A DNA stretch of 64,000 bases, from assembly GCA_022709525.1 (NCBI GenBank), contig JAKLIQ010000006.1:2708-66707 (forward strand), given 5' to 3'. This document shows positions 15,201 through 54,000 of the stretch, piece by piece. Below the pieces are notes generated by a model. It was not told the DNA's origin. It was given only the letters and a program-made list of their open reading frames with translations, and searched no databases. The DNA is from Candidatus Omnitrophota bacterium (GTDB taxonomy: Bacteria > Omnitrophota > Omnitrophia > Omnitrophales > Aquincolibacteriaceae). Within the stretch, counting starts at the first letter, position 1; each line of letters starts with the position of its first letter. The position numbers and the translations under genes are program-made.

Positions 15201-18200
15201 TTAGACGCTCTTGCGGTCAATGAAGTTCAGATAAGGAGGTTCGTGAATTTAATTGTCAAACAATTAGACGGCGTCAAAGATAAAACCATTGTTGTGCTTG
15301 GCGGTGCTTTTAAACCCGAAACGAGCGATACGCGAGATTCCAGAGCCGTTCGCGTCATGCAGGATCTGTTGCAAAAAGGAGCCAAGATCAGGGTTGTAGA
15401 TCCTAAAGCTATACCGGAGCTTCAAAGAATGTTTAAGGCGTATCCCCCCGGAGTCATTGAATACTTCGAGAATTTAGATGATTTTGAAAACGTCTTTAAA
15501 GAAGCAGACGGCATTGTACTCGCTACAGAGTGGGAAATATTTAGAGATAAAAGAATAGATCCTAAAAATGGAAAAATGGATTTTGAAAAAATAGCGGCAC
15601 TTTTTACTCATAGACAGTCACTTCCTCATATTTTTGACGGCCGAAACTTATTTGAAAGAAAAGCAGTTAAAGAATTTGGCTTTTCGTATATTGATATTGG
15701 ACGCGCCGAATTACTTAAATCAGACAAAGAACATGTCGCATTTGCAAAACAAGTCAAAGAAGTTTTTCTGGCAGGGAGAGTTTCTCATATCAATGATGTC
15801 GCAGAACTTGCAGAGAAAACCGGAGCCAACGCCTTGGATATCCGAAAAGGATTTGGGTTAGATCCCGTCGTCGGAGAGAGCTATTTAGATCCCGGCATTG
15901 GTTGGGGCGGTCATGACCTTGTGAATTCGCTCCGAGCTCTTGAGAAGCAATCTTGGGATAATATTAAAGATTTGTTGGATGAATATCGCGAAGCCAGGAA
16001 AGATTTTATGAAGCAGTTTGGTTTTAGCGAAAATGAGTTTCCTGATGACGAAAACAGAGTTCCTTTCGTAACAGCTAGCCGCGAAATCAACAAAAAGCAG
16101 ATCGGACTTTATTTAAATAAGGTCAAAACTATTTTAGGCCCTGATCTTAACGGAAAGGACATAACGCTCATCGGTTTGGCCTATAAGATCGGCACTTATT
16201 CTCTCGAAGAATCGCCTTCTATTCATCTCATCGAGGCTCTTTTGCAAGAAGGGGCGATCGTTCATATTGCGGATGAAAATCTTGCTGCTACCGCCAATAC
16301 GAAGGATTATTTTAGCAGATTTCAACACGGAAAATTCGTAGAAAATATTCGCCTTTATAACAATCTTTCCGACGCAATTGTCAATGGGAAGGATTTGCAA
16401 GTTTTAGTGAATCTTTCAGAACGCTACTCTGAAGAATCAGAATGGGCAAAACTCGGATTAAAGAAAGTTTTAGACGCCAGACATTTTTTTAATGATCCGG
16501 TTTCTCTTAAAAAGACGGGTATCAGTTATTTTGCTTTAGGGATACCCGAGGTGAGTTTAGCTGAGGAAGAAGTGTTGAGGCAAAGGGAAATGGAAAGTCG
16601 CGCTGTTCTGAGCCAAATGCAAAAAGCGATTGTCTTTTATAAAGACAAAGTTATGATCGAAGAAAGGGAAGATGAAACATATAAAGTTACCGCATTTGTA
16701 AAAATAGAGGATTCCTGGCTACAAAGAGCCGATTTTTATATTTTTTATGGACCTTATCCCCATGAGCGTCAAACTTTTGATTGGTATGCCCAAGAAGTTT
16801 TGGGCGGGAACATTCGAAAGATAGAACAAACACCCGATTTTTATCAGATCAAACTTATTATCTCACCTAAGAACAATTTTCCAGCTGTTGAGGGGAGGTA
16901 CGGCCTTACCCTTTTTGCCGTTCCTAAAACCATGGCAGAAACGGATCCGGGTTTTCGAAAAGTTCGGTTATGGGCCGCTAAGCCTTTTGACGACACTCCC
17001 TTTATCGTACGTCGTACCGAGCGTTCGGAGCTGCGCAGTCCCGTGGAGGATTTCAGGGCGGAGATCGAAGCGGGCAAAGTCACATTCATCATGTTCAAAG
17101 AAGACGCAGTGAGGGGCCGGAACGAAGAGGGATTGATGGTTCCTCAAATGCTCGAGCGGCTTAGAGACCACGGGTTTGAATTGGTGTATCTTGGCGCTCA
17201 GACCGAATTTACTCAGGAACAGGCCCGGGAGTTTTACGCGGTGCATCAGGGCAAGTGGTTTTATGAACCGTTGGTCCAATACATTACTTCAGGGCCCGCT
17301 ATCCCCGCGTTGGTACGGTATCATGGAGAAGGCCCGGCGGTTCAGGCGATCCGCAGCATTCTGCCGTCGTTGCGCCAGGAGTTCGGGATCGAGAAGGGGG
17401 ATCCGGAGCTCAAAAAAGTTGAACGCAACAAGATCCACGCTTCCGATTCACCCGAGAACGTGTTCTATGAAGGCGCGATCGCTTTCCGCTCCGAGCTCCG
17501 GACGCTGGATGTCGAGGCGCTCGTTGCAACGATCGCCGAACCGGTCTCCGCGATCGATCTTTTCAAGAAAATAGGGCAAAATTCCGCCTTAAGGCAGATC
17601 CGCGCTCTGAAAGAACAAATCATCAAGGCATCTTCCGAGTTCAATCAATCCAAACGCCAGGCCGAAGAAGTCCAGGAGATCGGCGATCTGGGGCTCAAGA
17701 TCGCAAAGCTTCTTTCCCAGGAAAATTATTCTCCCGAAAAGACCCAAGGGATCCTTCAAAAGGCGGTTTCAGAACTTTCTGAGGCGTTGGGGCTTATTCT
17801 TAGATTGCTGACTTACGCGGCAACGGCTAACACCAAAAGTATCCAGCCGTCGGTTTCCGTTGAAGCTCAAAAAATGGTCAAGAAGATCGAAGCGGCGATG
17901 GAGCGGCCTGCGCGCGAAAAGAAAGCTACGGAAACGGCGTCTCCCCGTTCCGAACTGCGGAACGTCGCGGCGCTGATCGCGACAGGAGTTGAGGTCAGGA
18001 CGCCCGAGGAATTCTTCCGGCGCAATCTCGAACAGGGCGGCGGCCATGAACAGGGCGTCCGGAGCGTTACGGAAAAGGTCATGGATGGGATCTATTCGCT
18101 TCTGGCTCATAGCTTTGATGCCGCAAAAGTCATTTCCTCCGCTTTCTTTCCGGAAGCTTATGCTCAAGAGATGTTAACCATGGCTTCCAAGCCCGAAATG

Positions 18201-35802: not shown

Positions 35803-36060
35803 AAAAAACCTCCTTTTTCTTAGCGGTTAGCCAGGCTTTTTGGCCACCGCACTAAGGTTAAAAACAAGGCCGTTATTATATCACGCCGGACCATGCCGTA
35901 AAGTTCCAAAATCCTCACAAAATCGACCCTAAAGACTAGAATTTGATGCTATAAAAAGTTATAAATTGAGCGTCTATTTTTTAAATACATTTATAAGAAA
36001 GTTGCTAAGCAGGATATCAGGTGTTACCTTTTAGGAACATTCAACCTGTTGTCCTGTCTG
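35803..36060. promoter_or_regulatory. AT-rich promoter region of giant gene 2. Contains GTGTTACCTTT (36021-36031), shared with the giant gene 1 upstream region.
   Basis: About 35% GC. caggtgttaccttttaggaacattc here against cttgtgttacctttcccatgag at 3162-3183. Confidence 0.4.
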
Positions 36061-39000
36061 ATGTTAAGAAAAGATGGGAAATCAAAAGTGAAGGGGCTAA
36101 GCGCGGTTTCTAAAATGCCAGACCATAACAAGACGACATTCTCTCTTCCGGTAAGGGCTATCGCCATGTTCGTTCTTTTTGCCTTTACGAGCACGACCAT
36201 CGCCTGGTCTGCGCCTTCAGTCGGGACTGAGGTGAAAGAGCTGAGTCGCGAGATAAAGATCAACCAGCTTGCAGAACGAATAACAGTTCCTTCCGAAATC
36301 GGCATCATCAAAGAAATACACACCGCTTCTCCCGCCTCAGCGCTCAGTCCTCAGTTCTCAGGGCTTATTGTTCACCTCGAAGACGCGCACGGGAGCGTGG
36401 AAGCCCAACTCCACCAGGAAGCAATCCTTCGCCACCTTCGAAAAGAGTACGGCCTGGATACGATCTTCGTTGAAGGCGGGCTCGGCGATCTCCGGCCGGA
36501 GCTTTTGAGTTTTCTAGAAGATGAGAAACGGAATAGCGAACTCATCAACAAACTGACCGAAAAAGGATTGGTCGGAGGCGTTGAGCGATTTTTGGCGACG
36601 AAGTCGCCAGACCAGAGACTACAGACCGCAGACCACAGCCTAAAGACAAAAGATTTTAAAGCAATTGCTCCGGTCTCAAGTCTTAAGTCTTCAGTCCGCG
36701 CTTTCGGGGTAGAAAGCGCAGAGCTTTACCGCCGCGAACTTGAACTTTTCCGGGAAGTCTATGCGCACAAAGCCGAAAGCGATCAATTCCTGAACGGGAT
36801 CCGCCGCCAACTTTTAGCGCAAAGCGCTTCCGGTTTTAACAAAGAACTCAAAGCATTCTTCAAGGAATGGCTCTTTCAAGAAGAGGTCCAGAAAGACATT
36901 CTTTCCCATCTTTCCTTCCTTCAGAAATATGCCGTCGAAACACTGAATCTTGATCTGACGGATGCCCGCGAACAGTACGATTGGCCGCAGCTTGTCAGAT
37001 TTTTCAAGTTGAAAAACCTGGAGGGACTCGTTCCTAGGGACTCGGAACTTGCCAGGGATGAAATGCAAAAATTGGCACAATGGCTGAATGATCAAAAGCT
37101 GGATGATCTCAATAAAGAATTGGAATTATTTTTTAACGAGCCCCGAGGAGCGAGCTTCGAGTCCCGCGGCGAAACTTTCAGGACGAGAATGGAAAAATTC
37201 TATGCGAAAGTTTCGCCACGGGGTTTCCGGTTTGAGGACTATCCCGCTCTTACCAAACGGATCGGTTCGATCATCCTAAGCCAGGAGATCCAGACCGGCG
37301 AGCTCCTTCAGGAAATGGAGCGGCTCAACGCGAAGATCCTCGAAGCGCTCGCTAAAACCCAGGAAGAGAAGCGAGGCATTGCGCAATATCAGGAGTATTT
37401 ACTGCTTAAGAAATTGTTTTCGCTTGAATTGACGAGAGAGGAATTTAAACAAATGGGACTCGCTCCTCGCGACTCGCTCCTCGAAAAAACAAGGGGCCAA
37501 GCCGAGTCCCGAATCCCTAGTTCCGAGCCCCCCGCGAGGGAGGTTTATTCCCGCGCGCTTGAGTTTTATGAAATCGCCCAACAGCGCGAAGAAGCTATCT
37601 TCAAGAATATGCTCGCCAAGATGAAAAGCATCAAACAACCGAACGCCGTCCTGATCACCGGCGGTTTCCACTCCGAGGGGCTTTCGGAATTCCTCAAAGC
37701 AAAAGGCGTTTCTTATGTCCGTATCGCGCCCCGCATTTCCGGGAAGATGGACGACGCAAATTATCTCCGGATCATGACTTTGGGACAGTGCGCACCGGCC
37801 GCTCGGTCTTCTGCCCGCTTCGCAACACTCACCAATGATCCTAAAAGTCTCGATGCTGCCACAGTTGAGTTTATTCGCGCGGAGCTTCGTACTTCTATAC
37901 GAGAAATCGCGGACGATGTGATCCCTTCTAATGAGTGGATTATCTCCAAAGACCTCTTGGGACGGCAGTCCGAAGCTATGGTTCCTCGGGACTCGGGACT
38001 CGGGACTGGTTTTAAAAACGAGTCCCTAGGCACAAGCGACAAGTCCCGCGCCGAAGGACGCTCCGAGGCCCGGGAAGAAGAAAAAGATCCGTCCGCTTTG
38101 GAAAAGGAATTTGAAAGATTGTTTCCTTCAAATAAAGAATTAATGCTGGCTCTGTTCGGGGAAATCGTTCTTCAAAATAAGAATATTGAAAAGTTTTTTT
38201 ATCAGCTCATGGCCATTTATGGTCTTGCATCCTGGGATGGCGAACATTATCAATCGACCACCAAAAGGCCCTTGTCTCCGGAGCAGGCTCTTTATTTTGT
38301 TTCTTTGTTGCGCTTGGAGGGAGGAGGATTTTTAGGGGATGAATATGAATTTATTTATAAAACGAAAAAAGGAAAAAGGACCGTCGAAAAAACCGTCGCC
38401 TACACCGATCTCGATCCGGAATACCTGGAATGGGCCGTAAAATACAAGATTCCCATAGAATATTTTCCCCTCACCTATAGCCTCTTTATCGATAAGAAAG
38501 AAGGCCTTCCTCAAACGGGCACCACAAAAATAGCGATCCGAGCCGGGAATCAATTGGGCGAGGAATTGTTTCGCGAGTTTATCGAAAAGCGCGGGCCGCG
38601 CGTTCGCGAACCTCTTGTTAACGCAAAAGGCGTCGATCCCAAAAATCTTCGATGGTTGAAAATTCATCCCGACAGCCATCTAAGCAAGATCGCCGATTCC
38701 CATGGGATCGATCCCAAGGATTTGAAGTTGGGGTTCGAGAAAGAAGGGGATCAACATTCCGTTTACCTTTTTACGGCAAACGAAACTTTTAACGCCGAAG
38801 CGAGTCGGCGGTTTGATGCTTCTCATGTCGCTTCAATTCCGATCGGTTTTGTTTCGATCCGCTATGACGGAAATACCCCTTTTATTTATGGTTATCAGCC
38901 GAGATTCTTTATTCCTTCTCATGGAAAAGAAGACGCGAACGATGTCGTCGGAAGAACTATCAAGGGCGGTATGCTCTTTCTCGAAGCGTTTTTGGAAAAA

Positions 39001-42000
39001 GAAATTTCAAAAATTGTTTCCGCGAAAAAACCAGTTAAAAAACTTCATTTTCCTACCCCTAGCTGGCATTTGGTAAACAGTAAAGTTGCCGGGACAACAG
39101 CTTTTCGATATTACTACGAATTTCCAAAAGAACAGGGATTTCAGCTTGTTCTCGCCACGCCAGAATCCAAGGCCTTTAATATGGGCAAATCTTGGCAACC
39201 TCATTGGCTTCTGGAAAAACATATCGAAAAAAACCGTTCCGAGATGCGCGGAAGCTCGATCTCGGTGAAATGGAGCGAAAAAATCGCCAAACTCAAACAA
39301 ACCCCGGATTATCGGCTGCTTGCCTACCTTTTAAAAAATACGGGCCTTTCGGAGATCGAAAAAAACAGATATATCACTCTTTGGCTCATGATGGCGATCT
39401 CGGCGCCGCTGACCGGCAGCCTGAAATTTGTTTTTGCCGCCGGGGCCGCCTCGCTTGCGGCCGTTTCGCCCTGGTTCGTTATGGCCCCGCCTCTTGTGGT
39501 GTTGCTCTTAAGCCCCCTCTTCCGGCTCGTGTTCTTTGTGGGGCCTTTCTGGGCCGCTTCCGGTTTTAAAATGAAACTCGATTGGCTGATCCCGGCGAAT
39601 TTTGTGCCCGGTTTGGGCGCTTTTATCGCCGTTCCCGCGCAGATCCTCAAATCCTTAAAAGGCGAATACCGGCAATATCAGAACATGTCGGTCAGAAAGC
39701 TCCGGCAGCTTGTCTATCAACTCGACGGCATTCTCTCCGAACACAGAATGAACCTCCCGCAGGAAGACCTGGACGCCATAAGATCCAGACTGCCCATGAT
39801 GGCTTTTAAGGTGCTGGAATTCCAGGCGGCTCATCCCGGGTTTTCTTTAAAAAAGAACGGAAAAGAAAACCCCGAAGCCATCCTCCATCTCGAAAGCGTC
39901 GATCTTTTGCCCGTCCGTCTCGAGAGTTTGATCCGGGAAAAGACGCCCACGATCTTTTTGGGTTCGGGCCAGGAAAGTTTTAATACTCTGCGGCAAAGGA
40001 TCCCGCCAGACCGGTTGCCCGGCCTGGATTTTTATCAATTTGACCTCAGCCAGGAGCCCGGGATCGAGAAAGATTCGATCCAGCCGCTTGCCGCGAGATC
40101 TGAGGCCAGACACAAAGGTTTATTTTCTAACGTAACACCGTTAGATAAGATCGTTGAGAAACACAAACAATGGAACCTCCATAAGGTAGTCGATGTGTTG
40201 GATCGTAAGGCGAGGGAAATAAAGACTTTTTTTTGGTGGGAGCTTTTAGAGCAATGGCGAACCGATGGCGGCTCTTTTTATTTTACCTCTGAAGAGAAAA
40301 ATTTTTCCGAATCATTACGCCGGGCCAGCGATGATCAATTCAAGGAGCAGGTTGAACGTCTTCTCAGGACCTCTTTTGCAAAAAGAGACCTTATTCTTTC
40401 AAGCAAAAAAGACTATCCGACTTTCGATGAACTCATAAACAGCTTTGAAACCGGATTTTTGTCATTTTATTCCAACCTTTTCGGTGTTTTAGCGGATGAA
40501 GCCGTAAGCGGAAGACTTCCTGCGGCGGAAAAGAATTGGAAAGTTTTGATGCCCGAGCTCATTCGTCGTTGGAATGAGAACGATTCAGCCCGCTCGGAAA
40601 TGAGAAATGATATCGAAAAAAATATTGAAAAGATCCTTGAACAGGCGGATGTCCGGATCCGTTCCGGCGATGAGGTAGAGTCAGAGCCGGGAGTTTACGC
40701 GGCAACGCCCCCAGTTTATTTGACCGCTATTGAAAAAGTGCTCCAAATAGATCCTCGCAAAGAATTAATCTTGATCGAAGCAGGACACGCACAGGGACTT
40801 CTCGCCCTAAGACTTGCCATGAAACATCCTAATCTTCGAATCATCGGCATCGAAGGACGCCCCAGTCTTTACGAGGACAGCAAAAAGATCCTTGAGGCCG
40901 CTATAGAGCTTCGCTTTTTAAGACCGGAACAGGTCCATTTTTATGAAGGTGATTTGAATGATGAAGAATTCAGCAAAGACTATGAAGCCGCGGATATCGT
41001 CTATTACTACAACTATGGCGCGGACGATGAGACAAAATTCGCTCTTACCCTGGCGGATCATTTGAAATATGGTGCGCGCGTTGTTGTTTTTGACGGTTTT
41101 TTAGATGGCGGGGAGGCCGATCATTTTAGCCAGGCCTTGCGGGAGACCGAAGTTTTTGAAGGAACGATTGTTCAGGGGGTCCGTAGCATACCTGTTTTCA
41201 AAAAAACGCTGGACACTCAAGATGTCTCTTTAGAAGGGAATCGCTCCGAGGTCCGGAACGAGGCGGCGACCTCAAGGGCTCTTCCCGGCGCCTCGAAACG
41301 CTTTGCGTACGCCGAAGAAGTGGCCCGCGTGGTCGGTCTTTTAGGAGAGCTCCGGCAGCTGGATAATACCCGCGTTCTAGCTCAAACCGAAAACGGGGTC
41401 GGCGAAGAAAACTGGAGCCGGTGGATCCAACACCATATGGCGGGAAAATTGCACGTTTTCTTCGGCTATTGGAATTCTTTCAATGAATCGGGGGACATCG
41501 AGGATCTTGAGACCGCGGAAAAAGGGTTGCAAGAGGCGGAAAATATTTTTGAGAGCCGAAAATCGTTCAAAGAGGCCCTTCAAAACGATTTTGATCATTT
41601 TCACCTGAATCCTCCTTTGGAAAAGGTCAGGAGCGGAAAACCGCTGTTTCCCCTCGAACTTGTCCATTATTTCCTTCACAAAGTTTTTGTCGAAAACCCC
41701 AATGCGCAAAAAAACCGCGAGGTTTATGCCCGCGTCATCCAGGATCTTGAAGAGGCCTTTTATGAGATGCGGGAGGCTTTTGAGAGGGTCAAGACCGAAA
41801 AATATTTTAAAACGGCGGAAGAACTGGAAAAAAATCCGCCGGCCAATGTTTCTTCTCAAAAAGCTTCTTCAGAGGTTCTGCGTCATTTTCGCGTCTATGA
41901 CGGTATGGATGGGAAACTTTACGCGGATCCGCGCGTCTGGTACCGCGAGAATTTTTCGGGCTTCGACCACTTCGCTGCCATTGGGCCCGGGGAAATTGTT

Positions 42001-45000
42001 TTTCTCACCCTCGATGAAGGAGCGACCGGCGCCGTGGCTTCGCTGGGTCATCACGAGTGTCTCTCGTTGGCGATCCGCGCGCGGGCCGGGAACAAGAACG
42101 TGATCGGCCTCGCCCATGTCTTTTATGACATCATGGCCGGAAACTCCCAGGATTCTTACGTCAAGTACCTCAAGATCCTCGATCATCTCCACGCTCAAAA
42201 AGAGTGGTCGGATATCCAGATCATACTGACCGAAAATAACGTTTTTCACGGTTTTCCGAAAGGTATGAATCTGGATGTTCTCAAGCGGGAAGCCGCCGAC
42301 CGCGGCATCCAGGTTTCTTCCGCCGAGGTCTGGAAATTCGGAACGGATGCCTGGGTGGACATCATTGCCACACCCCAAGAGGTTTTTCTTCGGAAAAGGG
42401 AAGGAACGGCTCCTTTCCGTTATGAACCAAAAGATTGGGGCGCGCCAATTCGGACGGACCCGGGCGATCCTCGCACGGTTTCGTTCATGCCTTCCACGCT
42501 CGTCAGTGAGGATGGAGAGGAATTTGAGGTGTCCTACGAGGACGGATCTGTCGACGGTCAAAGAACGATCAAGCTTTTATACGATGGTCAACCGGTCGCG
42601 ACCGTTGATTTCAGGATCGATCCCAAACAGAATGCGGCCATTCTGGATTACAACAATGATGGTCCCAAGCGCTATGTTGGGATCGAAGTAAATCAGTTTT
42701 TTAGCGAACGTTATTCGGGCATTGGTACTGCGCTCATGGGGCTGGCATTCCGCGTAGCGCGCGATGAAGGTATTCCGGAATTTTATGTTCTACATTCCAA
42801 GGCGGATGGTTTTTATGAAAAGCTTGGCATGATTAAGATTCGCGACGGCGTTTTTCGCTTTCCCTTGGAAGATTCTGAAAGGGAGAAACAACGCCTTTCC
42901 TTTCCTCCGCTTCGCATTCGCTCCAACCCCCGCTCCGAATTAAGAAAGAAAAAAGAGGAAGATCCGAATCAATTAAAACTGTTTGAAGCGTCCGAAACAA
43001 AAGAGCTCGATCCCGAAAATGCCCTCATGAGGCAACTGGGCTATGCCTGGGAGCAGATGAAGCAGGCCATTCAAAGCCCCGAAGAACTTGAAAAAGCTCT
43101 CTATGAAAAGATCCCAGCCGTTAAGAAGGCGGTTGAATTCCTCGGGTTCCAGGTCGTCGAAGAGAACAGGAAGCTTTTTGTCACAGATCCCGTTTTCAAA
43201 CGGAAGATCCAATTCCGCGCTTATCAGGTGCTTCTGGCCGCTCATGCCGCGCGGGGCGATGCGATGGTGATCTTGCCGACCGGTCTGGGGAAAACGATCG
43301 TCGCCGTGCTTGTCGTGGGTTATCTGCTGAAACAAGCCCCTCAGAAAAAGATCCTGATCACGGCGAATTCCAACCTGCTCGTTGAACAGCATGCCGACAC
43401 CTTTGATCAATATTTTGAGTCCGACATTATTGCCAAAATAGGCGAGAGCGATAACGAAGAAGGCCGACGAAGCTTGTGGCGAAGAGCGCGCATCGTGATC
43501 GCCACCAACGACCTTGTAGTTGCCGACCCCGGCGTCTTTTTGATCGACGATATAGGTTATTTGATCGTTGATGAAGCGCACAGGGTTGGTGCGGCTCCCG
43601 ACGACCGTTACGCCGGTACCCGGCTCGTTCAGGCTTATCGCGAAAAAAATCCCGATGGCAAATTGCTCGGCTTGACCGCTTCTCCGCGCCCCAAAAAGGA
43701 ACTGAAGGGGTGGCAGCAAAATCTCCGGCTCAGCGATACGGATTTTTTTGCGGCTTCGGAAGAAGACTCGTGGATCTATCCTTATGTGATCAAGCGCAAC
43801 GCCGAGATTGCTCGAGCCGAACGGGACGCCAAATTCCCCCTTCTTTTCATGATCCTCAGATTCCTGGAAGATGTTTTTAAGGTAGTCAGGACAACAGATA
43901 TTCGGGCCGATTTCGAAGATGCCCGTCAGAAAGTCCTGAATGCATGGCTCGAAGAGAATGACGAAAAGATCCAGAAGGTCTTTGACGGATTTTTGCAGGA
44001 TACCGCTCGTCAAGCGGCTGCAAGCAGCCAGCGCGTGTTAATGCAGGAACAGTACGGGCCGGTCTTGGAGCTTATCCGTAAAGTCCGCACAGAACTCGTT
44101 CCTCAGATGTTCGATTTAAAAGCCTCGAAAGCGGTCCGTATCGCGGAATGGGCCGCTCTTTTTGAAAAACCCGTTTTTTCCGACCCAAAATTTTTAGAAC
44201 TATCTGTCGCCGTTCGAACCTCTTTTGAGACGGAGCTTTTCAGAAAAGCAGCTCAAGACCTCGAAACGCTCATCGACAGGCAAAAATACAGGATCTATGA
44301 GCTTTGGCAGCAAAACCTTCAAAAATCCCTTTTGAATGTCAAAGGCGATATGTCCCGGCTGTCTCATGAAAAGATCGAAAGGCTCTGGGAAAAGACCTCC
44401 GAGGAATTCCGCGACAATCCCGACGATTTTGGAGTGGCTTATAAAGCGGCTGTGGAAGCAAAAAACTGGAAGGAAAAAGACAGGCTGGATGTCCTCGTAA
44501 CGCTCAACCAACTTTGGCATCTAAGGGGCGATTGGATCAAATACGGCCCCGAAAAATTCACAGGAACGATCCAGACAAAAGATTTGGAAGCGAAAGCCAG
44601 CTGGAAAAAAAGGACCCGGCCTGCGCTTGAAAGAACGAGCGTCCTTGACGCGGCAAGCTGGTTTCAAAAGAGCCGCGAAATCTTCCCCAAAGAAAAAATA
44701 CTTTTAGACCTGCTTCGACCCGTCCAGGGAAAACCTCACGACAGGACCGCGATCTTTGTTGATGATAAAAAAATGGCGCGGCGTCTCGTAGAGCTGATCA
44801 AAAAAGAATTTCCGGACCTTCGGGTCGCCATGCTCGTAGGACGCGGCATGGGGGGATCCGACGAAGGAATGACCCCCCGCGAACAAGAACGGGTCAGGGA
44901 TGATTTTAATAAAGGGAAATTGGATATTCTGGTGGGAACCGATGTCATGGCGGAAGGCCTGAACCTCCAGGGCCTTCGCCGCGTTATTGAATATACGCCC

Positions 45001-48000
45001 GCCCGGCGCGCCATTGAAAAGATCCAACGGCAAGGCCGCGTTTCTCGCTTTGAAGAGGGTTGGGTACTCAGTCTCGTGACGCCTTGGGACAGAAGCATTT
45101 ATTTTGGAACGCAGCAACGCGTGGAAGCGACCCGTCGGCTTATTCGGGACCTTCAAAAACGCAACCCCTACACGGAATTCCGTTCGGAGACGCGTATCAG
45201 TCTCCGCACTGAGAGAAACGAAGTTCCCGTACGTGCCGAGATGCGGGCGTCGGTTGCCGAAGAGATCGAGGAACGGGTTAGCAGCATGTATGACAAAGGC
45301 GATCTTGAGGTCGGTTATTGGTGGTTCGATTTCGAAGAATATGACGCCCGGCGCAAAGATCCCGACTATCCCACCCTCCCTACAGATCGTATCTCGAAGA
45401 TCCGTGAAGCTATGGAAGAATTCCGGGATCTTAGGACGGATAAAAATCAGATGATCTATGCGCGGAATATTCATTGGATCCTGGGGGTTCCGTCCGTCGG
45501 GATCATGTTGATTCATCTGCTTCTCCTTGCGCAGGGCGATGGGGAGGTCTACTGGAAGACATCCTTCGGTCTTTTAGGGGCAGTGGCTCTCTTGAATTAT
45601 TTCTTCAGCCGGGTGGTCGACTACACGACCAATGAACATCCTTACGAGAAGATCCTTGATATCTTGGAATCCATCGACAGGCAAGGACCGGACGAATCGC
45701 AGGGACCTTCCGTTCGCTCGGAAGCGCGGGATCGCGTATCCCAGCTTGCGCAAAATTTTGTGATCCAAAACCCGAACGGGATCCATCTGCGGCCCGCGGC
45801 CGGCATTGTCAAAATAGCGCAGCAGATCTTTGCGGCGCTCGGCATTACCGTATGGCTGCAAAAAAGTGGCCAGGGAGAACGGGTCCCGGCCCAAAGCGAA
45901 ACAAAAGTCGCCCTCCTTGGGTTGAGGCAGGGTGATTCAGTAACGGTCATTTTGGATTCGCGAGAAGGCGAATCCTATCCCCGCCGGTTCTTTGAAAAGA
46001 TCATGAAGCTTTGGAAGAAACTTTTTAACGACCCCGAAGCGCTCAAGGCCGGTCTTTCCGGGGAGAAAGGCCTCCCGTATTTTAGCGCCATCACTTCCCT
46101 GGTTCCGGAAAAAGACGCATCCCGTCGTTCCGAGATACGGACAAAACATCCGCCGCAGAAACGTGTTATGAAGTTCCGGGACGTCGCCTATTACTACAAC
46201 AATTTTGACAAGGCCGCCGAGATATTCAAAAAGATCCTCAAGGCAAGCGAAAAGGGCGTGATCAACGCCGGAGACCGCATCTGGCGCGAAACGCTTCCCG
46301 CGATCAAAAGTTATTACGATGCCTACAACAAAAGAGGGGAGATCCCTGAAGATTTCAGGGTCATGGCTATGCTTGTCCGCGCCATCATGATCTTTCAAAT
46401 GCTTATGGGCAAGAAAACTTCGATTCCCCAAACATCCAAGCCCGCGAAAAGAAGCGCCGTTTCAGAAAACCATTTTAAAGACCGGTACCGTTTCTGGTCT
46501 GACGCGGCACTATTCAATAAAATCGCCGAAGTCCTCAAGGCCCTGAAAAACCCGGACATGGCCGCCAAGATCCGGGATCCGAAACTGGGACTTCCCCAAT
46601 TCGACACGCCTCAGATGACGCGCCTCAATGAACTGGCCGCTATGGATCGATTCGTTCATCCCGAAAAACTCGAATTGGAGGATATTTTTACCCGCTTTGA
46701 TCGCCGTCATGCTGCGGCCCGAGGAGAGACCTCTTTTCGTTCGGAAACGAGGGAGCCGCTTCTTCTGGATGGTAATGTCAAACTGACCGCGATCCGGGAA
46801 AAACTCTCTGACATCAGCGAACTTCACCTCGACCGGGATATCCGCAAGGCCGTCGCCATGCAGATCCGCCGTGTCATTTTGGCGAAACAGGACCGGCTGG
46901 GATGGGAGGACCTTCAAAAGATCGAAGGGCTGGAAGATCTGAACCTTTCTGTCTTGAAGGAAAATTTCAAATTGCCCGTCAAAACTCCCGTAAGATCCCT
47001 GAAATACAGCCGCCGCTTCGCATGGGGCTTGGCCGGCCTGCTCGCCGCATCGGCACTTTCGATCGCCGGCTGGTTCAAGTGGGAATCTTCTAGAGCAAGA
47101 CAGTCTTTGACAGCAACATTCCAGAAGGCGGGAGACGTCAAAAGCGAGATTTATCAAGATTTGGAAAAAGTTTATTTTGAAAAAATGCCTCTCTATAACG
47201 TTTTTCCAGCTGCGCTTTATAAAGATCCGCTTTATTTCCCGAATCAGGAATGGGGCAATTATCACCTGACTGTTATTGGCGATATTCACACACATCCGGA
47301 CACCCCCGCGCTGATTTTGGATGCCGCCCGTTTGATTGCTGAAGATCCCCAGCAGTGGGTTCTTTTAGTGGAAGGGTATGAGGAGTGGAAAAAGAACAGA
47401 AATGAGAATGCCGTGGATCTGGTACTTCTGGATGAACTTATCAAGAGAACAAAAGCTCCTGTTCTGGATTTTGTTCCATTGCCTAGCGATGCTGATGTTC
47501 TCGAAGGGATCCAGGAACGTCTCGAATTTTCAAAAGAAGAGATTTTAAATATTTCATGTTTTCTTAAACTTGGTTTTTATTTTACCGTGGCTGATGATTC
47601 CGGTCGCCCTCAGGAGTGGGCCTTGGAAAAAACTCTTAACCTTATGTCATCCCGAACAGGCCTACCCAAAGAATATTTTTTAAACCAGCTCACGGCATTG
47701 GCGCAGTCCCTAAAGGATTTAGATGATGTTGGTTTAAAAAAAGTCTGGGAGAAAATAGTTCGCTTTCAGCTTATAGAAATTGAAGCGCGCAACACAGTGG
47801 GTCAAAAACGTGTTCGGGAATTTTTATCAAAATACCCAAACCGTAAGAATATTTTTGTTATTACCGGATCCTTACATCTCCCCATCTTTGATATTCGCTT
47901 ACCTCCCGAGCATCAACCAATGACATTGCCCTATGATTTTTTTACCGAATCTCTGTCGCGTTATTACAGCGTCTTAGAACTCAATGCATCTTCTTTCCGC

Positions 48001-51000
48001 TCGGAAATCCGCGGCGATACGAAAGATTCCGCGTTAGCGTGGTCGCACAAACGCACCAAAGAGCTTTTGGCGGCGATGTCTCCTGCCGTCCAGGATACGA
48101 TCTCCAAATTCTTGAAGGAAAAGATCCTTCGCCACCGGAACAATCGTTTGATGGAATGGAGCAGATCGCTTAAAAATCAAAGTCATGCTGCAAAAATAAA
48201 AAATGATATAGAGCAATGGTCTGGCGGAATAGAGTCCCCAAAGGGTAAGAAAAACGAAGAAATTATAGCCCTAATCGAGCCTTGGCTTGATGGAGATTAT
48301 TTCTGGTTTGATGAGATTGCCTGGAATCCCATCCAGGTAACTGAGTATATGCTACAAGTTTTTTTAAGCCACACGAGCCCGGCTTTTTCAAATTGGGCAG
48401 AAGAGAAAGCCGCTCAATTCAACATGACCCGTGAAGAATTTTTAACCCGGCTTCTGACGGATATCCGCCTGATCGAGCTTCTCGTCATTGTTTTTATGCA
48501 AAGCAACCTTCACTCGACTTTCCCGGGCATGCCGGTGACAATTCTTACCCTCAAAGACGAGGTTCTGGCAAGCGCGACCCATACGGGAGATACGATCGCA
48601 AACGGACAGAATCCACTCGAAACAATCCCCGAAAAGAAAAAAGAACCCTGGCTCGAAGTTCTGAAACGGTCATTTCAGAAACCGCAGCCTGTTTCCAAAA
48701 AAGAGCCCGAAAAAGTCGCTTGGTATAGGCGCGTGATCGCAGTGAGCGAGGAGAAGATCCGCGGTCTGGTGGATGCGAAAGCGCGCGAAAAGGGGACCGA
48801 GGAGTTCCTCGATAGCTTTATTCCGGAATTGATCCATTTCGTCAAGCATTCGCGGGATTTTAAAGCTTCGGAACATGAACTTGTCAGCATGAAAAAAGAG
48901 CTGGATCGATATGTCGGCCTTAAAAATCTTTTTTCATTCATCCCGCGCTCCGATCCGCCTGCAAGGCAGGACGGATCTCCGACAAAGAACTCGACGGATC
49001 CGTCCGGCCCCGTGGCGGACGTCCTGCTTTCCCGGGCGGAAATGCGGATCTCCGCGGCGGAACTCGTCAAGAGGGAACGCCAATTGGATCAATGGGCGCT
49101 TATGGCGGAAGAACTCAAAAAAATAAAGCGCTTGCAGGATACCTCGGAAAAAGCGTTCCGCAGACAACGCGAAAGCATCGCCGAGCAGGTCATGAATTAC
49201 GCGATGTCGGATGAAGTGTTCATGGACCGTTTGATTACCGCCGATTTTGAGGCCGCGGCCGGTATGTTGACATCATTCCCTTACCTGAAAAAAGAAGACC
49301 AGCCGATTTTAAAAGTCATGCTGGAGATCGTTTTCCCGCCCGAAGCGGCGACGCGGCATTTGAAGGCCTCGTGGCTCCAAGTGATCTGCTGCGGCGTTTC
49401 AGGATTAGGTCTTTTTTTAAAAAACATTTTGCGGCCTAAGAAGACCTTTCAAAACGGAACTCAAGGATCAAAAAGCGAAAGCCCCGCAGTTTTTACCGAT
49501 ACCACTTCTTCGGCTGGCCGGCGTTCCGAAATGCGCGCAGAAGAAAAAAACCTGCCGCAGACCGAAGGAAAGCTCTTCAACAACCTTTCGCTGGATACGT
49601 TGGCGGAGACCCTTGCGCCCGTTGTTTTAGATATGCGGGATAGGCGGGAAAATGTTTATGTTGAGGGCAAAAACAAAAGAAGGGAAGTAATTGGAGTTGT
49701 TCGTTTTCAGCCCGGACTTCAGATCGCTCTGGCGCCAAGGTTTGCTGGCAGATCATTTTATAATTCGCATGACGAGTTCGCTCAGAAAGCAGGTTTTACC
49801 GAAACGGTTGATGAGAAAGGATATGCCCGACTATGGTTAACCTTTAATGAAGAAAAAGAACTGATCAGGATCGGCCTCTCCCCGGATGCGGACAAAATCA
49901 TTTCTTCTGATGAAAAGCGAAAACAGCTTGCCGCTCTGGCGCTTATGACAGCCAAGATCTTAAGAAGTCTCGAAGATCACGATCTCGATTTTAAGCTCGG
50001 AGGTTTTGCTTTGGAGATCGGCGGGAGGACGAGTTTATTGGGTGACCATGAACGCAACGCCGTTTGGGGTCAAAGCCAGTCTTCGATCGAGATGCTGGAC
50101 CGGCTTTCGACGCTTGGAACAACCGAACCCGGGGTCCAAGAAATGCGGAGCGAACTTCGCGAAACAACGGGCGATATTGTGTTAAGACAAAAAGGCCGGG
50201 ACATGTGGGAGACCGAGCGCAAGCCCGATAAGATGGTTTTTCATTTCGAAACGCTCGAGATGCAGAAGCTTCCTAAAGGAAGCCAGCGTTCCCGGGCCTA
50301 TGAATTCCGGACTGTTTTCAAGACGTTATTTCCCGCTCTGGCTTATGAAGCTTATAAAGGTGAACGGAGCTTCGCCTTAAATCCCGACCGGATCAACGTC
50401 CTTCTTCTTTCGGAAGGAAAACCCGCCGGCTTTTACAGCTATTCCAAATTACCTTATCAGCGCAACCAGTTGTTGGGTTTCGGCGTGATCCAGGATTATC
50501 GCGGCACTGGCGCCGAAGACGTGCTTTGGGAAGATATCAAAGCCCGCGTTTTTTACAATAACCCCAAGGCCAGGATCATTGTACCGGATATAGCATTGCT
50601 CAATTCCCGGGCCGCGCCGGGCCGGTTTGAAGGCACGGCTGAAGATTTAAAATCAGCCCTAGGCATTGAAGGCGCTGCTCCAAAAGAGGAAAGCAGTGCC
50701 GGACAAGGTGTAAGAGCCGATGAGACGATCGCTCAAGAGCATGCTTTTGAAGCTTATACCAAAAGGATCTTCACGCCTGAATTCTTGAAAAAATACGAAA
50801 CGAAGCTCGCCGAGATGAGAGATGCGATCGGCCTGACTTTAAGGTCCTATGGGCACCAGCTCGTGAACCGGCAGGAAATGGCCAAAGAGATCGTGGACTT
50901 TTTGGAACAATCCGCCGCTACTACTGAAACAAGGCTTTCTTTGGCGAAGCTGCCGCAAGGCGTCACCCAAGAGGGATCAAAGCGAGCCACCTTCTTCTTT

Positions 51001-54000
51001 TTTATAAATGAAGAATATCTGGAATTTATCGGAGGCGCGCGCTATGACGAGAAAGGCGAAGAATATCACCACGGACGCTTGGCTCAGGCCTTTGAGATCG
51101 ACCTCACTCAATTTGACCATGTGCTTATTTACGGTTCTGCGGAAGGCGCCTCTCCGAAAAACCCGGAAGGAGAGATCAGTTTGACATTCTTAGAGAATCA
51201 TTACCCGCAGGAAAAGGGAAAATTCCTGGCGACGCTTCTTGCGGCAGGCGGGGTCCCGCTTTCGAAAAAAATAAATGTCCGGAACAATTCCGTTCCCGTC
51301 AAATCCATCAAAACCCTCGCTGACATGCTTTCGTTTAATGACGGCTCTTCAGCTCCGCGTTCGGAAACGCGCGCGCCGCTCAACTTGACGATTCGATACT
51401 CCCAGGATTTTTATAATGTGATCGCCCGGATGCAGGCGAATGAGCGGTACGCTTTGATGAACCGGCTATATCGATTCCTGAGAAGCGCTCAGCATACCAC
51501 AAGCACCACGGGAGTCGGCAAGCCCTTGACCGGCGGTTTGAACATGTACAAAGAGTTCCAGTGGGGGGATTACAGGATCCTGTTCATTTATAATATCCAT
51601 CGAAATTTTCCGGAAAATGATCCGGCGCGCCGCGAATTCATCCTTTTCCTCTGCTGGTACAAAAAATGGAGCATTGATAGTCAAAAACCTTTGAATGACG
51701 AAGCCCGTAACAATAAAGCCATTCAAAAAATACTGGATCCGGCTTTGCCGCAGGACGGAGAAAAGATCCAACAGCTCCTCAAGTGGTTTTATGAGGAGCG
51801 CGAAGAAAAACCAATAGCCGATCTGGAAGATTTTGATTTTTTAAATCAGGTTGCGCCTTCGCTCCTTTTTTCCCCCATTCAAAAATTAGACCTTGAAGAT
51901 CTAAGGGGGACCCTTGAAGCCAATCTCAAAGTTAAAGAAAGTTTTACGAATGCTCCCATTTTATACTTTGCCATTCACGACATGCAGGCGGCGCTGGAAA
52001 AAGAACCCGACAATTTAGAAAAAGCCGCGCATCTCTGGCTGGGCAAGAGCGGGACAGTGCCGCGGGAAGAAGCCGAGCGGGCGAAGCAGTTTTTAAGGCA
52101 ATGGACCAGCGCTGAATACCGGCTCTTGGCGTTGATCGAAAATGATTTAAAAGAAAATGAATCCGCTCAAGGTTTTCGCAAGGCGCTTGGTAACATTGCG
52201 TGGGTTTATTTCGAACTCGCGGAAAAACCTTTCAGAAAAAAGATCCAGCAGAAAATAGAAGAATGGGCGCAGCGCCGGCCCGAGACCTCCAAAGGGTTGG
52301 GGCAGATCCAAGCGGCCTATGCTCAATTAAGGAAAGGAAATGCGGGGGAAGATGTTTTTTCGAGCCCTCTCGTTGAAAAAATGATCGAAGCGCGGAAGGA
52401 ATGGCTGCGTTCGCCGCCAGTCGTAAAAAAGCCTGTGTTAAAACCGGAACCGGCCGCTGTATCGCCGGCAGAAGTTACGCCTGTTTTGGCGATTCGCAGG
52501 GAGCCGGAACCGGCTTCCGTTCCACCGTCCATCGAGCGCGAACCTTTGAAACTTCCGGACACGCCGGTTGTTAAGGAAGCGATTGGGAAAGCCAAGAAGC
52601 TTTTTGAAGATTGTAAAATCCGGCCCGATCTAATAACGGACGCCAACGCCGAAACCGCTTTGGCCGTAGCGCTGGATCCCCAATACACGTTCAAAGAAGC
52701 GGGAGCGAAGCTCGAGAAGCTTTTTGAATCTTCAATCGGCGAAAATACGGCTAAGGATCTTCGCAAAGAGCTCGAACAGCTCGGTTTTTTAGCGGCTTTG
52801 CATCAAATGAACCAAATCCGGGCCCTTAAACATTTGACACAAATGTTTAGCAAGGCAGAAGTTTCCTTCGAGTCAGGAGACGTTATTCAAGCCGAAACTC
52901 TTGTAAAGTCGGCTATCGTCGCGGATGGTTACGGCCGGCCCACTGAAGGCAAAAGCTCTCTTGATAGCTTATTGGGGAAAATAAAGGAGCTCGAAGAGTC
53001 GATCAAAGCGTTGAAGAAATGGACGGCGGTTCTGCTCGAAAATCCTGAAACCTCGGCGCCCTTATCAAAAGCGGACCTGGATAAATTGGTTGCTGAGTGG
53101 GATGGTTTTTCAAAAAAACAGCAAAAAGCCGCCGAGCATCTTTTGTCTTCCGAAACAAGCCGGGGCCGCTTGAAGGACAACCTAGCAAACTCCTTTTTTG
53201 TCGCCGCTTTTCTCCTGCCGTTTGTTAGGGAGCACAAGGCCAGTTCCGGATGGGTAGAGATTCTCATCAAGGACCCCGCCATGATAAGAGATATGAACAG
53301 AGAGCTTATAAACCGTGGGGCAAAGGTTTTGACCGAGACGCAACATGTTTTCCCCGTAAGCCCAAAAGGGTCTCTCCGTTCGGAGGTAAGAGGAAAAAAA
53401 GAAGTTACGCTCGTCATGCCAAAGGGTCCGTACGTTTTTTCTGATTTTGAAAGTCAAGAAGACCTGGCGCCGGAGGTCAGGGCTTTTGATTTAAAAGATC
53501 ACGACATGGAGTTAAGTTTTAACTTCGAAGCCTTTGATGCTCAGGGGAAAAGCCGGTTCTATTTCGATCGTATTCACAATATACTTTTTTTCAACGGCGT
53601 ACCGCTTGCTTTCTACGGTAAAGAACGGGACGAGAATTCTCCTCTCGAAGAGATCTATCAAACGCCGGACGAATTGGCGGCAGGCCATTCGCCAAGCAAA
53701 GTCGATGCCATCCTTCCGAGCGGCAATTTGGGGCAAAATGATTGGTTCGTTGCTATTGTGGACGACAAGGTTTACCACTATTCGAAGGACCCGCTTGACC
53801 GAGTTTACGACATGCTTCTTGTCAAAGAAGACGGTACGCTTGAGGTCCGCAGCCTTCGATTTAAAGATCAGAAAGGAATGCGCGGGATTTATGATAAAAA
53901 CTATCGTTCGATCCCTTTCAAGATCCGTTACGGGTTTTACGGGCAGCGCCTCGTTAAAGACAGGAAGCTCAATCTTGCGGGGGTCGCCACACAGTTCGAT

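Follow-up and report, generated by a model that had tools for sequence, protein, structure and literature searches.

Layout of the locus

The window that we analyzed is a stretch of 64,000 nt from a Candidatus Omnitrophota bacterium, and all positions are given within it. On its forward strand, an ORF at 36049-56841 with a TTG start encodes a protein of 6,930 aa (hereafter giant 2); the JGI call begins at the ATG at 36061 and yields 6,926 aa. The ORF is real: three independent assemblies of a Candidatus Omnitrophota MAG each carry a call of the same gene (6,926 aa), and its annotation on record is 'helicase-related protein [Candidatus Omnitrophota bacterium]'. It is a cellular, chromosomal gene with housekeeping genes around it.

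Giant 2 is a membrane protein in which unrelated enzyme modules follow one another in a string, with a pentapeptide, R-[S/A]-E-x-R, at every junction. A predicted hydrophobic N-terminal signal-anchor (aa 33-51, 36145-36201), preceded by a Lys/Arg-rich stretch, leads into a conserved N-domain (aa 60-600, 36226-37848). Variable cargo modules follow, and the chain closes with a conserved C-terminal domain (aa 6751-6930, 56299-56838) that ends in -KSA, shares 35% identity with that of giant 1 and has RSELR (aa 6746, 56284-56298) at its upstream edge. The cargo comprises a methyltransferase-like module (a reading of the sequence alone), GNAT, a Hef-like helicase, transmembrane (TM) hairpin modules that recur along the chain, HPr, a second TIKI-like domain and many unknowns. 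The first-pass annotation, which covered 43200-51680 (aa 2385-5210, within this single ORF), correctly recognized very different modules within one giant membrane protein, and its helicase and HPr assignments hold; it missed the punctuating motif and the shared terminal domains.

Giant 1 (5,181 aa, 3153-18698, forward strand) belongs to the same family, with an N-domain, 14 copies of the pentapeptide and a C-terminal domain, which in the giants closes in Ser/Ala-Ala. Among its cargo are REC, two UDP-glucose dehydrogenases and an NDK module (aa 4629-4783) bounded exactly by two motifs. Adjoining it on the reverse strand (855-2966) is a cargo-less family member of 703 aa, divergent from giant 1, which carries a Sec signal peptide and an N-domain with all conserved residues and ends in -KAA. 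Its N- and C-domains are fused, with no motif separating them.

A pentapeptide at module boundaries

We counted 22 R[SA]ExR sites in giant 2, where 0.39 are expected, and 14 in giant 1, where 0.29 are expected; no other real gene in the window contains one. The x position is aliphatic or small. In both giants the sites always fall between domain-sized modules, and the HPr, helicase, REC and NDK domains identified by Pfam are never split by one. Both arginines use CGN and AGR codons, serine uses TCN and AGC, and the glutamate codon also varies, so selection acts on the peptide.

Sites at the edges of named modules are given with those modules. The others in giant 2, all on the forward strand, are RAELR (aa 610, 37876-37890), RAEGR (aa 667, 38047-38061, overlapping an RSEAR), RSEMR (aa 1063, 39235-39249), RSEAR (aa 1350, 40096-40110), RSEMR (aa 1515, 40591-40605), RSEVR (aa 1732, 41242-41256), RAEMR (aa 3062, 45232-45246), RSETR (aa 3564, 46738-46752), RSEIR (aa 3984, 47998-48012), RAEMR (aa 4329, 49033-49047), RSEMR (aa 4492, 49522-49536), RSELR (aa 4700, 50146-50160), RSEVR (aa 5777, 53377-53391), RSETR (aa 6177, 54577-54591), RSEAR (aa 6520, 55606-55620) and RAEIR (aa 6722, 56212-56226). 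Those of giant 1 start at 4620, 5199, 5478, 6192, 6765, 8055, 8496, 9129, 9537, 10113, 13866, 17022, 17487 and 17946. In the searchable literature we came across no account of this motif.

The motif across Omnitrophota

In 34 related giants scanned for k-mers without bias, RSE.R came first, with 238 observed occurrences against 2.4 expected. Across 80 related loci from named Omnitrophota genomes, motif density was 1.59 per 1,000 aa in ORFs headed by the N-domain and about 0.055 in ordinary ORFs, an enrichment of about 29-fold in family members. Four genomes lack R[SA]ExR and instead carry [GA][AQ]SLG at 1.0-1.5 per 1,000 aa (background 0.0036); the two motifs never occur together in one genome, and for both the first site lies directly past the N-domain. 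The paralog groups of the N-domain do not track motif type, which makes the embedded N-domain unlikely to be the specificity determinant.

The motif forms a conserved island inside gappy, variable linkers, and the median interval between motifs is 220 aa. Alignments between giants hold 77 motifs, compared with 189 expected. The modules are cassettes shuffled between relatives: one relative carries four giant-2 modules in changed order, and other family giants hold housekeeping-type modules, also shuffled (NDK, UDP-glucose dehydrogenase, CMP kinase, NUDIX and a PEP-utilising domain).

The beginnings of modules resemble the N-termini of proteins. At 34 of 317 sites, the 45 aa that follow the motif contain a hydrophobic h-region, compared with 9 of 317 on the preceding side (Fisher p = 1e-4), and modules often open, 2-10 residues past the motif, with a predicted signal peptide of the Tat, lipoprotein or Sec type. 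Canonical Tat signals lie 2-5 aa downstream in P0008, L067 and L077; in L062 and L031 the motif precedes a lipoprotein signal that has a lipobox; and of the Sec signals with AxA|Q, one is in the window itself (giant 1, aa 1205). Methionine is about as frequent behind the motif as chance predicts (38 against an expected 38.1).

Modules of giant 2

The helicase module (aa 2300-3044, 42946-45180; Pfam and NCBIfam) lies between RSELR (aa 2295, 42931-42945) and RSETR (aa 3045, 45181-45195). Its DEAD/ResIII lobe (aa 2386-2547, 43204-43689) and Helicase_C lobe (aa 2881-3001, 44689-45051) both score above the Pfam cut-off, with E about 1e-17 for the SF2 lobes, and an insertion of ~330 aa separates them. 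The top NCBIfam model is the Hef nuclease NF010337 (E 1.7e-56), bearing out the earlier description of a Hef/RIG-I-like SF2 helicase with a large insertion. In the TM hairpin module that precedes HPr (aa 3067-3222, 45247-45714), where two helices had been proposed, we found one strong hydrophobic helix (aa 3143-3161) and a weaker second one (~3172-3190).

Other assignments fared less evenly. The significant GNAT acetyltransferase domain (aa 2169-2261, 42553-42831; PF00583, 24.5 bits, cut-off 20.7) lies just upstream of 43200-51680, where GNAT modules had been noted, but the GNAT-like stretch within that range (aa 4772-4821, 50362-50511) reaches only 17.6 bits against the same cut-off. A 'toxin-like' RelE/ParE fold was proposed for aa 5109-5210 (51373-51678), just past RSETR (aa 5104, 51358-51372). 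A sequence pattern fits it, and a model of low confidence (pLDDT 46) shows the order beta-alpha-alpha-beta-beta-beta; Pfam, PDB-sequence, homolog and fold searches gave it no statistical support.

The N-domain, with a small alpha/beta core and a ~300-aa helical insert, contains D-x-H, a Glu 28 residues on, an Arg and GGFH; the His-28 residues-Glu pair, the Arg and the distal His are invariant between giants 1 and 2. The second TIKI/TraB-like module (aa 3569-3983, 46753-47997), recognized at the motif level, has an HhH-like stretch and a single TM helix (about aa 3650-3672), followed by a core (aa 3690-3990) in which H, W, EG, RN and GxxH are invariant across 10 homologs. The TraB domain proposed here retains its residue pattern (H...EG...RN...GxxH), but PF01963 touches only one of the 10 members, below threshold (E 0.072). 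Both domains share with the TIKI/TraB/PrgY/GumN/ChaN/erythromycin-esterase superfamily the strand-end His, the Glu exactly 28 residues later and the distal GxxH; the His-Glu spacing equals that of Bcr135 (H85/E113) and RRSP (H3902/E3930), and, like the Tiki and PrgY proteins, both have a membrane anchor ahead of them. Unlike members of that superfamily, they match Pfam (ChaN, TraB) only below threshold, with the ChaN matches in 4 of 11 N-domains tested (E 0.0042-1.1, all sub-threshold). Foldseek gave no significant PDB match, for which the 300-aa helical insert may be responsible. We regard the N-domain as TIKI/TraB-like and possibly a hydrolase.

The HPr module (aa 3228-3359, 45730-46125) lies between RSEAR (aa 3223, 45715-45729) and RSEIR (aa 3360, 46126-46140). 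Its PTS-HPr domain (aa 3235-3304, 45751-45960) scores 42.1 bits against a Pfam cut-off of 23 and falls below the cut-off of NCBIfam TIGR01003 (36.1, cut-off 47.9). The equivalents of His15, the phospho-acceptor (aa 3246, 45784-45786), Arg17, Pro18 and Ser46 are retained; the first reading had noted the context of the acceptor His. The signature with His15, Arg17 and Ser46 is shared with PTS HPr and its fusions (FPr, DhaM, multiphosphoryl transfer proteins); one such fusion among the matches, P0015 (821 aa), has an HPr-like stretch upstream of a PEP-utilising-type C-terminal part, as judged by reading its sequence and not by a Pfam scan. Unlike in these fusions, the neighbours of the giant 2 HPr are a TM hairpin on one side and a module of unknown kind on the other, not PTS partners.

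From this HPr and the REC of giant 1, the first-pass annotation had suggested control of the giants by phosphotransfer, each a single signalling/toxin protein. The retained HPr residues, the acceptor Asp kept in REC and a PEP-utilising (enzyme I / PPDK-type) domain in another family giant fit that model. However, enzyme I, HPr kinase, EII and histidine kinase are all absent from the genes of the window; HPr and REC are two isolated cassettes among about 35 unrelated cargo modules, each bounded by R[SA]ExR; and a search of 1.84 billion representative proteins turned up no other giant with a close counterpart of the HPr module. We consider phosphotransfer control very unlikely.

What the motif may do

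We propose that the motif probably marks cut sites, which would make each giant a mosaic polyprotein processed by a lineage-specific protease; we put the probability of this reading at about 0.5. The cleavage itself, its position and the enzyme are what we infer. Viral polyproteins (picornavirus, flavivirus and coronavirus type) likewise have a short, recurrent, lineage-specific motif at domain boundaries and internal signal peptides; unlike them, the giants have no detected chymotrypsin-like or papain-like protease module, their modules are shuffled cassettes without fixed order, and the gene is cellular and chromosomal. Several observations count against cleavage. Giants 1 and 2 contain no classical protease motif, and a rough topology count places motifs on both membrane sides, so that a single compartment-bound protease could reach all of them only before or during insertion. 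In an uncut chain, internal signal-like segments could serve as start-transfer helices, the 703-aa member joins its N- and C-domains uninterrupted, and the suggested link between the N-domain and TIKI peptidases consists of sub-threshold matches and a residue pattern.

Giant 'multi-enzyme' proteins have been described in this phylum, with unrelated Pfam domains (REC, NUDIX, kinases and sugar-nucleotide enzymes) tiling a membrane-anchored chain and TM helices every few hundred residues, as here (West-Roberts et al. 2023, 10.1101/2023.11.21.568195; Nielsen & Lui 2026, 10.64898/2026.06.07.730766). Post-translational cleavage of such proteins has been suspected before, and the 2023 paper stated the cleavage points to be unknown; neither paper mentions the junction motif, the shared TIKI-like N-domain or the C-terminal -[S/A]-A signature. 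Our giants (5.2 and 6.9 kaa) are shorter than the proteins of at least 10 or at least 30 kaa in those papers, and Pfam reported here none of the C39 peptidase, S8 peptidase and SecA-DEAD domains named there.

An uncut, membrane-tethered multi-enzyme scaffold, anchored at intervals by TM hairpins, is a less probable alternative, in which R[SA]ExR would be a linker element that serves co-translational folding or is bound by one shared partner, such as a chaperone, an insertase or a scaffold. The repeated hairpins and the missing protease motif agree with it, as does the 2026 preprint, which interprets almost half of the long Omnitrophota proteins as cytoplasmic enzymes anchored in the inner membrane (bioRxiv 10.64898/2026.06.07.730766), and a genome-specific alternative motif is compatible with any trans-acting reader, protease or other. 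Yet Tat and lipoprotein signals right behind the motif make little sense without a free N-terminus, and HPr and NDK usually work as small soluble proteins. We know of no binding motif that occurs 22 times in one chain without conserved flanks. MARTX toxins also place conserved terminal regions around a strain-variable effector mosaic that is cut in inter-domain linkers; those linkers are cut after Leu and are not known to carry a five-residue consensus. The giants share this layout and might, improbably in our view, be exported or inserted into the cells of prey or hosts. The conserved ends would then deliver effector cargo that a prey-activated or co-delivered protease would release at the motif, a special case of the cleavage model. 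Omnitrophota are reported to be predatory or host-dependent, with giant proteins, the signal-anchor would put the N-domain outside the cytoplasm, and the TIKI superfamily counts RRSP, a MARTX effector and TIKI-family endopeptidase, among its members (PMC6254334). Against this, Pfam found neither RTX repeats nor the inositol-phosphate-activated C80 cysteine protease domain in giant 2, the annotated window genes include no type I secretion system, the cargo is housekeeping-like rather than toxin-like, and bacterial Tat, Sec and lipoprotein signals on many modules point to use in the producer's own envelope. Finally, the motif might act at the level of the nucleic acid, as a site of recombination or cassette insertion, of internal ribosome binding or of RNA processing, with the peptide as by-product. 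This would suit the position at cassette junctions and the GGAG inside a few sites, but the codon variation largely refutes it: the 15 nt are not conserved beyond the needs of the peptide. The lack of methionine enrichment and another paper's report of such ORFs without catalytic RNA also speak against it.

Giants 1 and 2 are best read as members of an Omnitrophota-wide family of membrane-anchored mosaic proteins. Under the polyprotein reading, the pentapeptide would direct processing by a single protease, of which each genome encodes one copy, and a cut at or just after it would set individual modules free. Giant 2 would yield a free HPr of ~130 residues with intact His15 and Ser46 and a 745-residue helicase, and giant 1 a 155-residue NDK; in relatives, cutting would unmask the signal peptides that many modules have directly past the motif.

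The giant 2 gene and its modules

The segment between positions 43200 and 51680, which the first-pass annotation read as a mixture of nucleic-acid, signalling and toxin-like modules, lies entirely within one open reading frame, giant 2 (36049..56841, + strand, 6,930 aa). Because gene calls for a 551-kb JGI contig and for two ENA assemblies give the same gene (6,926 aa from an ATG at 36061), giant 2 is not an assembly artefact. NCBI labels it 'helicase-related protein [Candidatus Omnitrophota bacterium]'. Together with giant 1, a member of the same family (3153..18698, + strand, 5,181 aa), and a 703-aa relative (855..2966, - strand), it takes up 60% of the window. The remaining genes are all housekeeping genes (MqnA-like, M24 peptidase, transketolase, GGT, NUDIX, ABC/GldG, ThyA, DHFR, SOD, YgiQ and others). 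Among them, between the two giants, are genes for a 23S rRNA-intervening-sequence protein (PF05635, 33713-34063, + strand) and a small GIY-YIG nuclease (20459-20866, - strand).

Profile searches partly confirmed the earlier module assignments. Both lobes of the superfamily 2 helicase pass the Pfam cut-offs (DEAD/ResIII, aa 2386-2547, E = 3e-17; Helicase_C, aa 2881-3001, E = 1.3e-17), and its description as Hef-like with an inter-lobe insertion also stands: the top NCBIfam model is the Hef nuclease NF010337 (E = 1.7e-56), matched in two stretches, with about 330 aa between the lobes. The score of 191.8 bits stays far under the 610 needed for the full-length Hef equivalog, and Pfam reports no XPF-type nuclease domain beside the helicase. 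A PHROGs search of giant 2 returned helicase matches and added nothing else. Of the two transmembrane helices placed after the helicase, one is strong (aa 3143-3161) and the second is weaker. The HPr domain is well supported by PF00381 (aa 3235-3304, 42.1 bits against a cut-off of 23) and falls short of the stricter TIGR01003 (36.1 against 47.9). Its phospho-acceptor context is kept, in that NGIHLRPAA and QSETKVALLGL align with His15, Arg17, Pro18 and Ser46 of stand-alone HPr, represented by two reference sequences. One GNAT module passes PF00583 (aa 2169-2261, 24.5 bits against a cut-off of 20.7) but lies just outside 43200-51680, while a second candidate (aa 4772-4821) stays under that cut-off at 17.6 bits.

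Two further proposals found no support. For the RelE/ParE-like fold (aa 5109-5210), Pfam gave no match at E ≤ 10, a PDB sequence search gave none, no homolog appeared at E ≤ 0.01, and Foldseek returned no fold support and no meaningful result. A tblastn search of this stretch against plasmids gave five matches, with E values of 4-8, of which one falls in a RelE/ParE gene. A single-sequence AF2 model has its elements in beta-alpha-alpha-beta-beta-beta order at a pLDDT of only 46; this order is compatible with RelE/ParE and proves nothing. The suggestion that the giants are regulated by phosphotransfer was likewise not borne out by the genes of the window, which include no PTS component; the partners sought (enzyme I, HPr kinase, EIIA) are absent from the 64 kb and from the 10 kb downstream.

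Several other modules were observed along the two giants. A stretch of giant 2 (aa 1520-1731, window 40606-41241) resembles a class I SAM-dependent methyltransferase (…LIEAGHAQGLLALRL…IIGIEGRP…), and Pfam gives no match over it at E ≤ 0.1. Over aa 3594-3642 (window 46830-46974), ahead of the transmembrane helix of the second TIKI-like module, the ComEA-like helix-hairpin-helix model NF045978 of NCBIfam matches weakly (E = 0.0019). Giant 1 contains a complete NDK domain (PF00334, E = 1.4e-15) in a 155-aa module (aa 4629-4783, window 17037-17501) bounded exactly by two RSELR pentapeptides, and the two modules preceding it hold two copies of UDP-glucose/GDP-mannose dehydrogenase.

A pentapeptide at module junctions

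Reading the translation of giant 2, we found the pentapeptide R-[S/A]-E-x-R at nearly every switch between recognisable domains. Giant 2 has 22 copies of this junction motif, against 0.39 expected from shuffled sequences (at most 3), and giant 1 has 14, against 0.29 expected; no other gene in the window carries it. The HPr module (aa 3228-3359) and the helicase module (aa 2300-3044) each lie exactly between two motifs, and Pfam domains are never broken by one. In a logo of 70 sites the x position is Val, Leu, Met, Ala, Thr, Ile or Ser, and the flanks are without conservation, with Ser, Pro and Gly enriched upstream. The codons of the motif vary freely (Arg CGN and AGR, Ser TCN and AGC, Glu GAA and GAG); the constraint therefore acts on the peptide, and a signal at the DNA or RNA level was rejected. 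In having a recurrent short motif at their module boundaries, the giants resemble processed multi-protein precursors (polyproteins).

The modules change order between relatives. Locus L005, whose N-terminal domain is 56% identical to that of giant 2, carries four giant 2 modules in a different order. Alignments between giants hold 77 motifs against 189 expected, and the motifs that do fall inside them are islands of identity in gappy linker. The median interval from motif to motif is 220 aa, with an interquartile range of 132-409. Cargo in other family members includes (d)CMP kinase, REC, ABC1 kinase, NUDIX and a PEP-utilising domain. The last was seen in P0011, a 2,515-aa fragment of another giant, as a PF02896 domain of the enzyme I / PPDK type (E = 1e-16) in one chain with R[SA]ExR motifs and the second TIKI-like module; more than one giant therefore carries cassettes of the PEP or PTS type.

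Distribution of the motif in Omnitrophota

We searched species-representative genomes by alignment with the conserved N-terminal part of the family (the N-domain, giant 2 aa 60-600), which gave at least 544 loci. Among the 80 loci listed, several of them from one genome, organism-level names are all Omnitrophota or a candidate genus that the literature assigns there, and the others read 'uncultured bacterium'. The open reading frames headed by an N-domain in these loci contain 309 junction motifs in 194,000 aa, or 1.59 per 1,000 aa, against about 0.055 per 1,000 aa in the ordinary open reading frames of the same loci, with a few neighbouring giant fragments set aside. In an unbiased k-mer scan of 34 giants, RSE.R ranked top (238 observed, 2.4 expected). 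The junction motif is over-represented about 100-fold.

Giants that lack R[SA]ExR show another recurrent pentapeptide, [G/A][A/Q]SLG, and the two motifs exclude each other by genome. R[SA]ExR occurs at 0.5-3.9 per 1,000 aa in 34 genomes, where SLG is essentially nil. Four genomes (ASOC01, JAKQXH01, JAJDCD01 and JACROU01; loci L030, L043, L066, L068, L074 and L080), with Omnitrophus fodinae among them, have zero R[SA]ExR, and SLG at 1.0-1.5 per 1,000 aa against a background of 0.0036. In both types the first motif site comes directly after the N-domain. A third group of giants, from other metagenomes (P0009, P0010, P0017), has neither motif and carries many HEFxH peptidase-like modules, with 15 HExxH sites against 0.44 expected. 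Hydrophobic segments of these proteins contain repeated 'SLTARY...HEFFHALADGFRG' modules, which look in sequence like embedded membrane metallopeptidases.

The N-domain, its relatives and the C-termini

Giants 1 and 2 have in common the N-domain (about 550 aa, 29% identity) and a C-terminal domain (about 170 aa, 35%). An AF2 model of the N-domain built from 15 sequences (pLDDT 78, pTM 0.71) has a small alpha/beta core split by a helical insert of about 300 aa. Foldseek with this model found no PDB match of significance, with ChaN at rank 37. Four residues, His1, Glu, Arg and the His of GGFH (His2), are invariant in 93/93 sequences; the distance from His1 to Glu is 28 residues in 87 of the 93, and the position two before His1 is acidic in 67. 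These residues agree with a catalytic pattern of the 2His/2Glu type. The same His-Glu spacing is found in the TIKI-superfamily enzymes Bcr135 (H85/E113) and RRSP (H3902/E3930) (PMC6254334). Only one family, ChaN/Tiki (PF04187), turns up repeatedly in N-domain scans, always below threshold, with E values of 0.0042-1.1 in 4 of 11 sequences.

The first-pass annotation also proposed a second TraB domain, which corresponds to aa 3690-3990 of giant 2. The catalytic pattern of His, Glu and distal GxxH, read against reference residues from PMC6254334, supports it, with H58, W, E86-G87 (28 residues on), R225-N226 and G251-x-x-H254 invariant in homologs, but the PF01963 profile does not, being touched by only one of ten homologs at E = 0.072. 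A PDB profile search with this domain found nothing, and hhalign against the N-domain aligned the H...EG motifs at a probability of only 4.6%. The homologs lie mostly within other giants; a few are short open reading frames, which are probably fragments. A JAB/MPN reading of 'HTHP' (aa 3747) was rejected since the second His is not kept in homologs. On these grounds the N-domain and the second TIKI-like domain are both likely TIKI/TraB-like hydrolases, with family membership unproven.

The 703-aa neighbour of giant 1 (855-2966, - strand) is a family member without cargo. The protein combines a Sec signal peptide with an N-domain in which every conserved residue is kept, and it ends in -KAA; Pfam gives no match and the junction motif is missing. 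In nine other Omnitrophota loci, short genes of this kind (714-793 aa) lie upstream of giants in divergent orientation. A profile of the C-terminal domain did not pick up the 703-aa paralog or distant giants. We surveyed the C-termini at window positions 56830-56838 and 18687-18695 and in loci L009-L083: of the 43 complete proteins that begin with an N-domain, whether short or giant, 38 have [Ser/Ala]-Ala as their last two residues (-KSA, -RSA, -KAA, -VAA and others). Such ends are reminiscent of the small non-polar C-termini that tail-specific (Prc/Ctp-type) proteases or ClpXP recognise.

Cleaved polyprotein or uncut array

Module starts look, in their sequence, like protein N-termini. A hydrophobic h-region lies within 45 aa downstream of 34 of the 317 motifs and upstream of 9 of the 317 (Fisher p = 1e-4), against a rate of 4.5% at random positions. 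Canonical twin-arginine signals lie 2-5 residues past the motif in P0008 ('RAEVR-QNM-TRRALVKGG...'), L067 ('ET-NRRGFLKAG') and L077 ('TSSVM-SRRNFLKG'), lipoprotein signals with a lipobox follow it in L062 ('...LVSMAGC') and L031 ('...YLALGC'), and Sec signals with AxA↓Q follow it too, among them one in giant 1 ('RAEVR...RFKLALAIGIIGLWSAIMARA↓QTVFPGKP'). Such signals, Tat above all, normally act at a free N-terminus; their position is the strongest indirect argument for cutting at or just past the motif. The giant 1 site (aa 1205-1250, window 6765-6900; RAEVR, then ...GLWSAIMARA↓QTVFPGKP) has the same layout in its L065 ortholog, with a conserved AxA↓Q (...AVSAKA↓QTVLPGKP).

The motif and the modular architecture are observed directly, and the explanation best supported is a mosaic polyprotein: the cassettes of giant 2, HPr included, would be set apart by a lineage-specific processing motif. 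That the chain is cleaved there we infer with a probability of about 0.5. The main rival, which we consider unlikely, leaves the chain uncut, as an array of enzymes tethered to the membrane whose motif serves for recognition or as a linker. Giants 1 and 2 contain no classical protease motifs (HExxH, GDSGG and similar). Whether such products remain one chain or are cut was already raised as a question for Omnitrophota giants (10.1101/2023.11.21.568195). The change of motif between genomes speaks for a single trans-acting reader in each lineage. Paralog groups of the N-domain cut across motif types, so specificity is probably set by something other than the embedded N-domain, and its candidacy as a cis-acting, specificity-determining protease is weakened. 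Internal translation starts past the motif were rejected, as Met is not enriched there. Under the polyprotein reading, the embedded HPr is probably a releasable cassette, as opposed to a domain that regulates a giant machine.

Relation to known systems

Since membrane-anchored multi-enzyme giants of Omnitrophota have been described before (10.1101/2023.11.21.568195; 10.64898/2026.06.07.730766), the kind of protein is known. Many distinct Pfam families tile a polypeptide bearing transmembrane helices or signal peptides, as in class 1 of Nielsen & Lui 2026, although the giants here are shorter than the 10 kaa threshold of that catalogue. The earlier proposal of cleavage was based on C39 and S8 domains, neither of which Pfam reports here. 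The 2023 preprint noted that the cleavage points are unknown, which stands in the way of structural analysis (10.1101/2023.11.21.568195). Neither preprint mentions the junction motif (10.1101/2023.11.21.568195; 10.64898/2026.06.07.730766), and literature searches for the motif strings, or for polyprotein with Omnitrophota, found nothing relevant. The closest systems in logic are MARTX toxins and viral polyproteins. Unlike MARTX, giant 2 has no RTX repeats or C80 cysteine protease reported by Pfam or NCBIfam, and its neighbours are housekeeping genes instead of type I secretion genes; unlike in viral polyproteins, viral-type proteases were not found in these giants.

Significance

The giant genes of Omnitrophota are still a puzzle, for which the junction motif provides a concrete map of candidate cut sites that can be tested. 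It lets any such giant be split into modules for structure prediction, it tells proteomics which neo-termini to seek, and a comparison between genomes of different motif type should lead towards the protease responsible. It also changes the meaning of the 'embedded HPr' that was first noticed. If cleavage were confirmed, this would be large-scale polyprotein use by a cellular organism.

More tentatively, Omnitrophota may encode a share of their proteome as cellular polyproteins with a lineage-specific 'cleavage code', R-[S/A]-E-x-R in most lineages and [G/A][A/Q]SLG in others, with embedded HEFxH peptidase-like modules in their place in a third group. One chain would then contain membrane hairpins, cytoplasmic enzymes and Tat, Sec and lipoprotein substrates, all split apart afterwards by a dedicated protease. 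If this is true, the giant genes would be operon substitutes and not single giant machines, and the motif would be the long-missing map of their cut sites.
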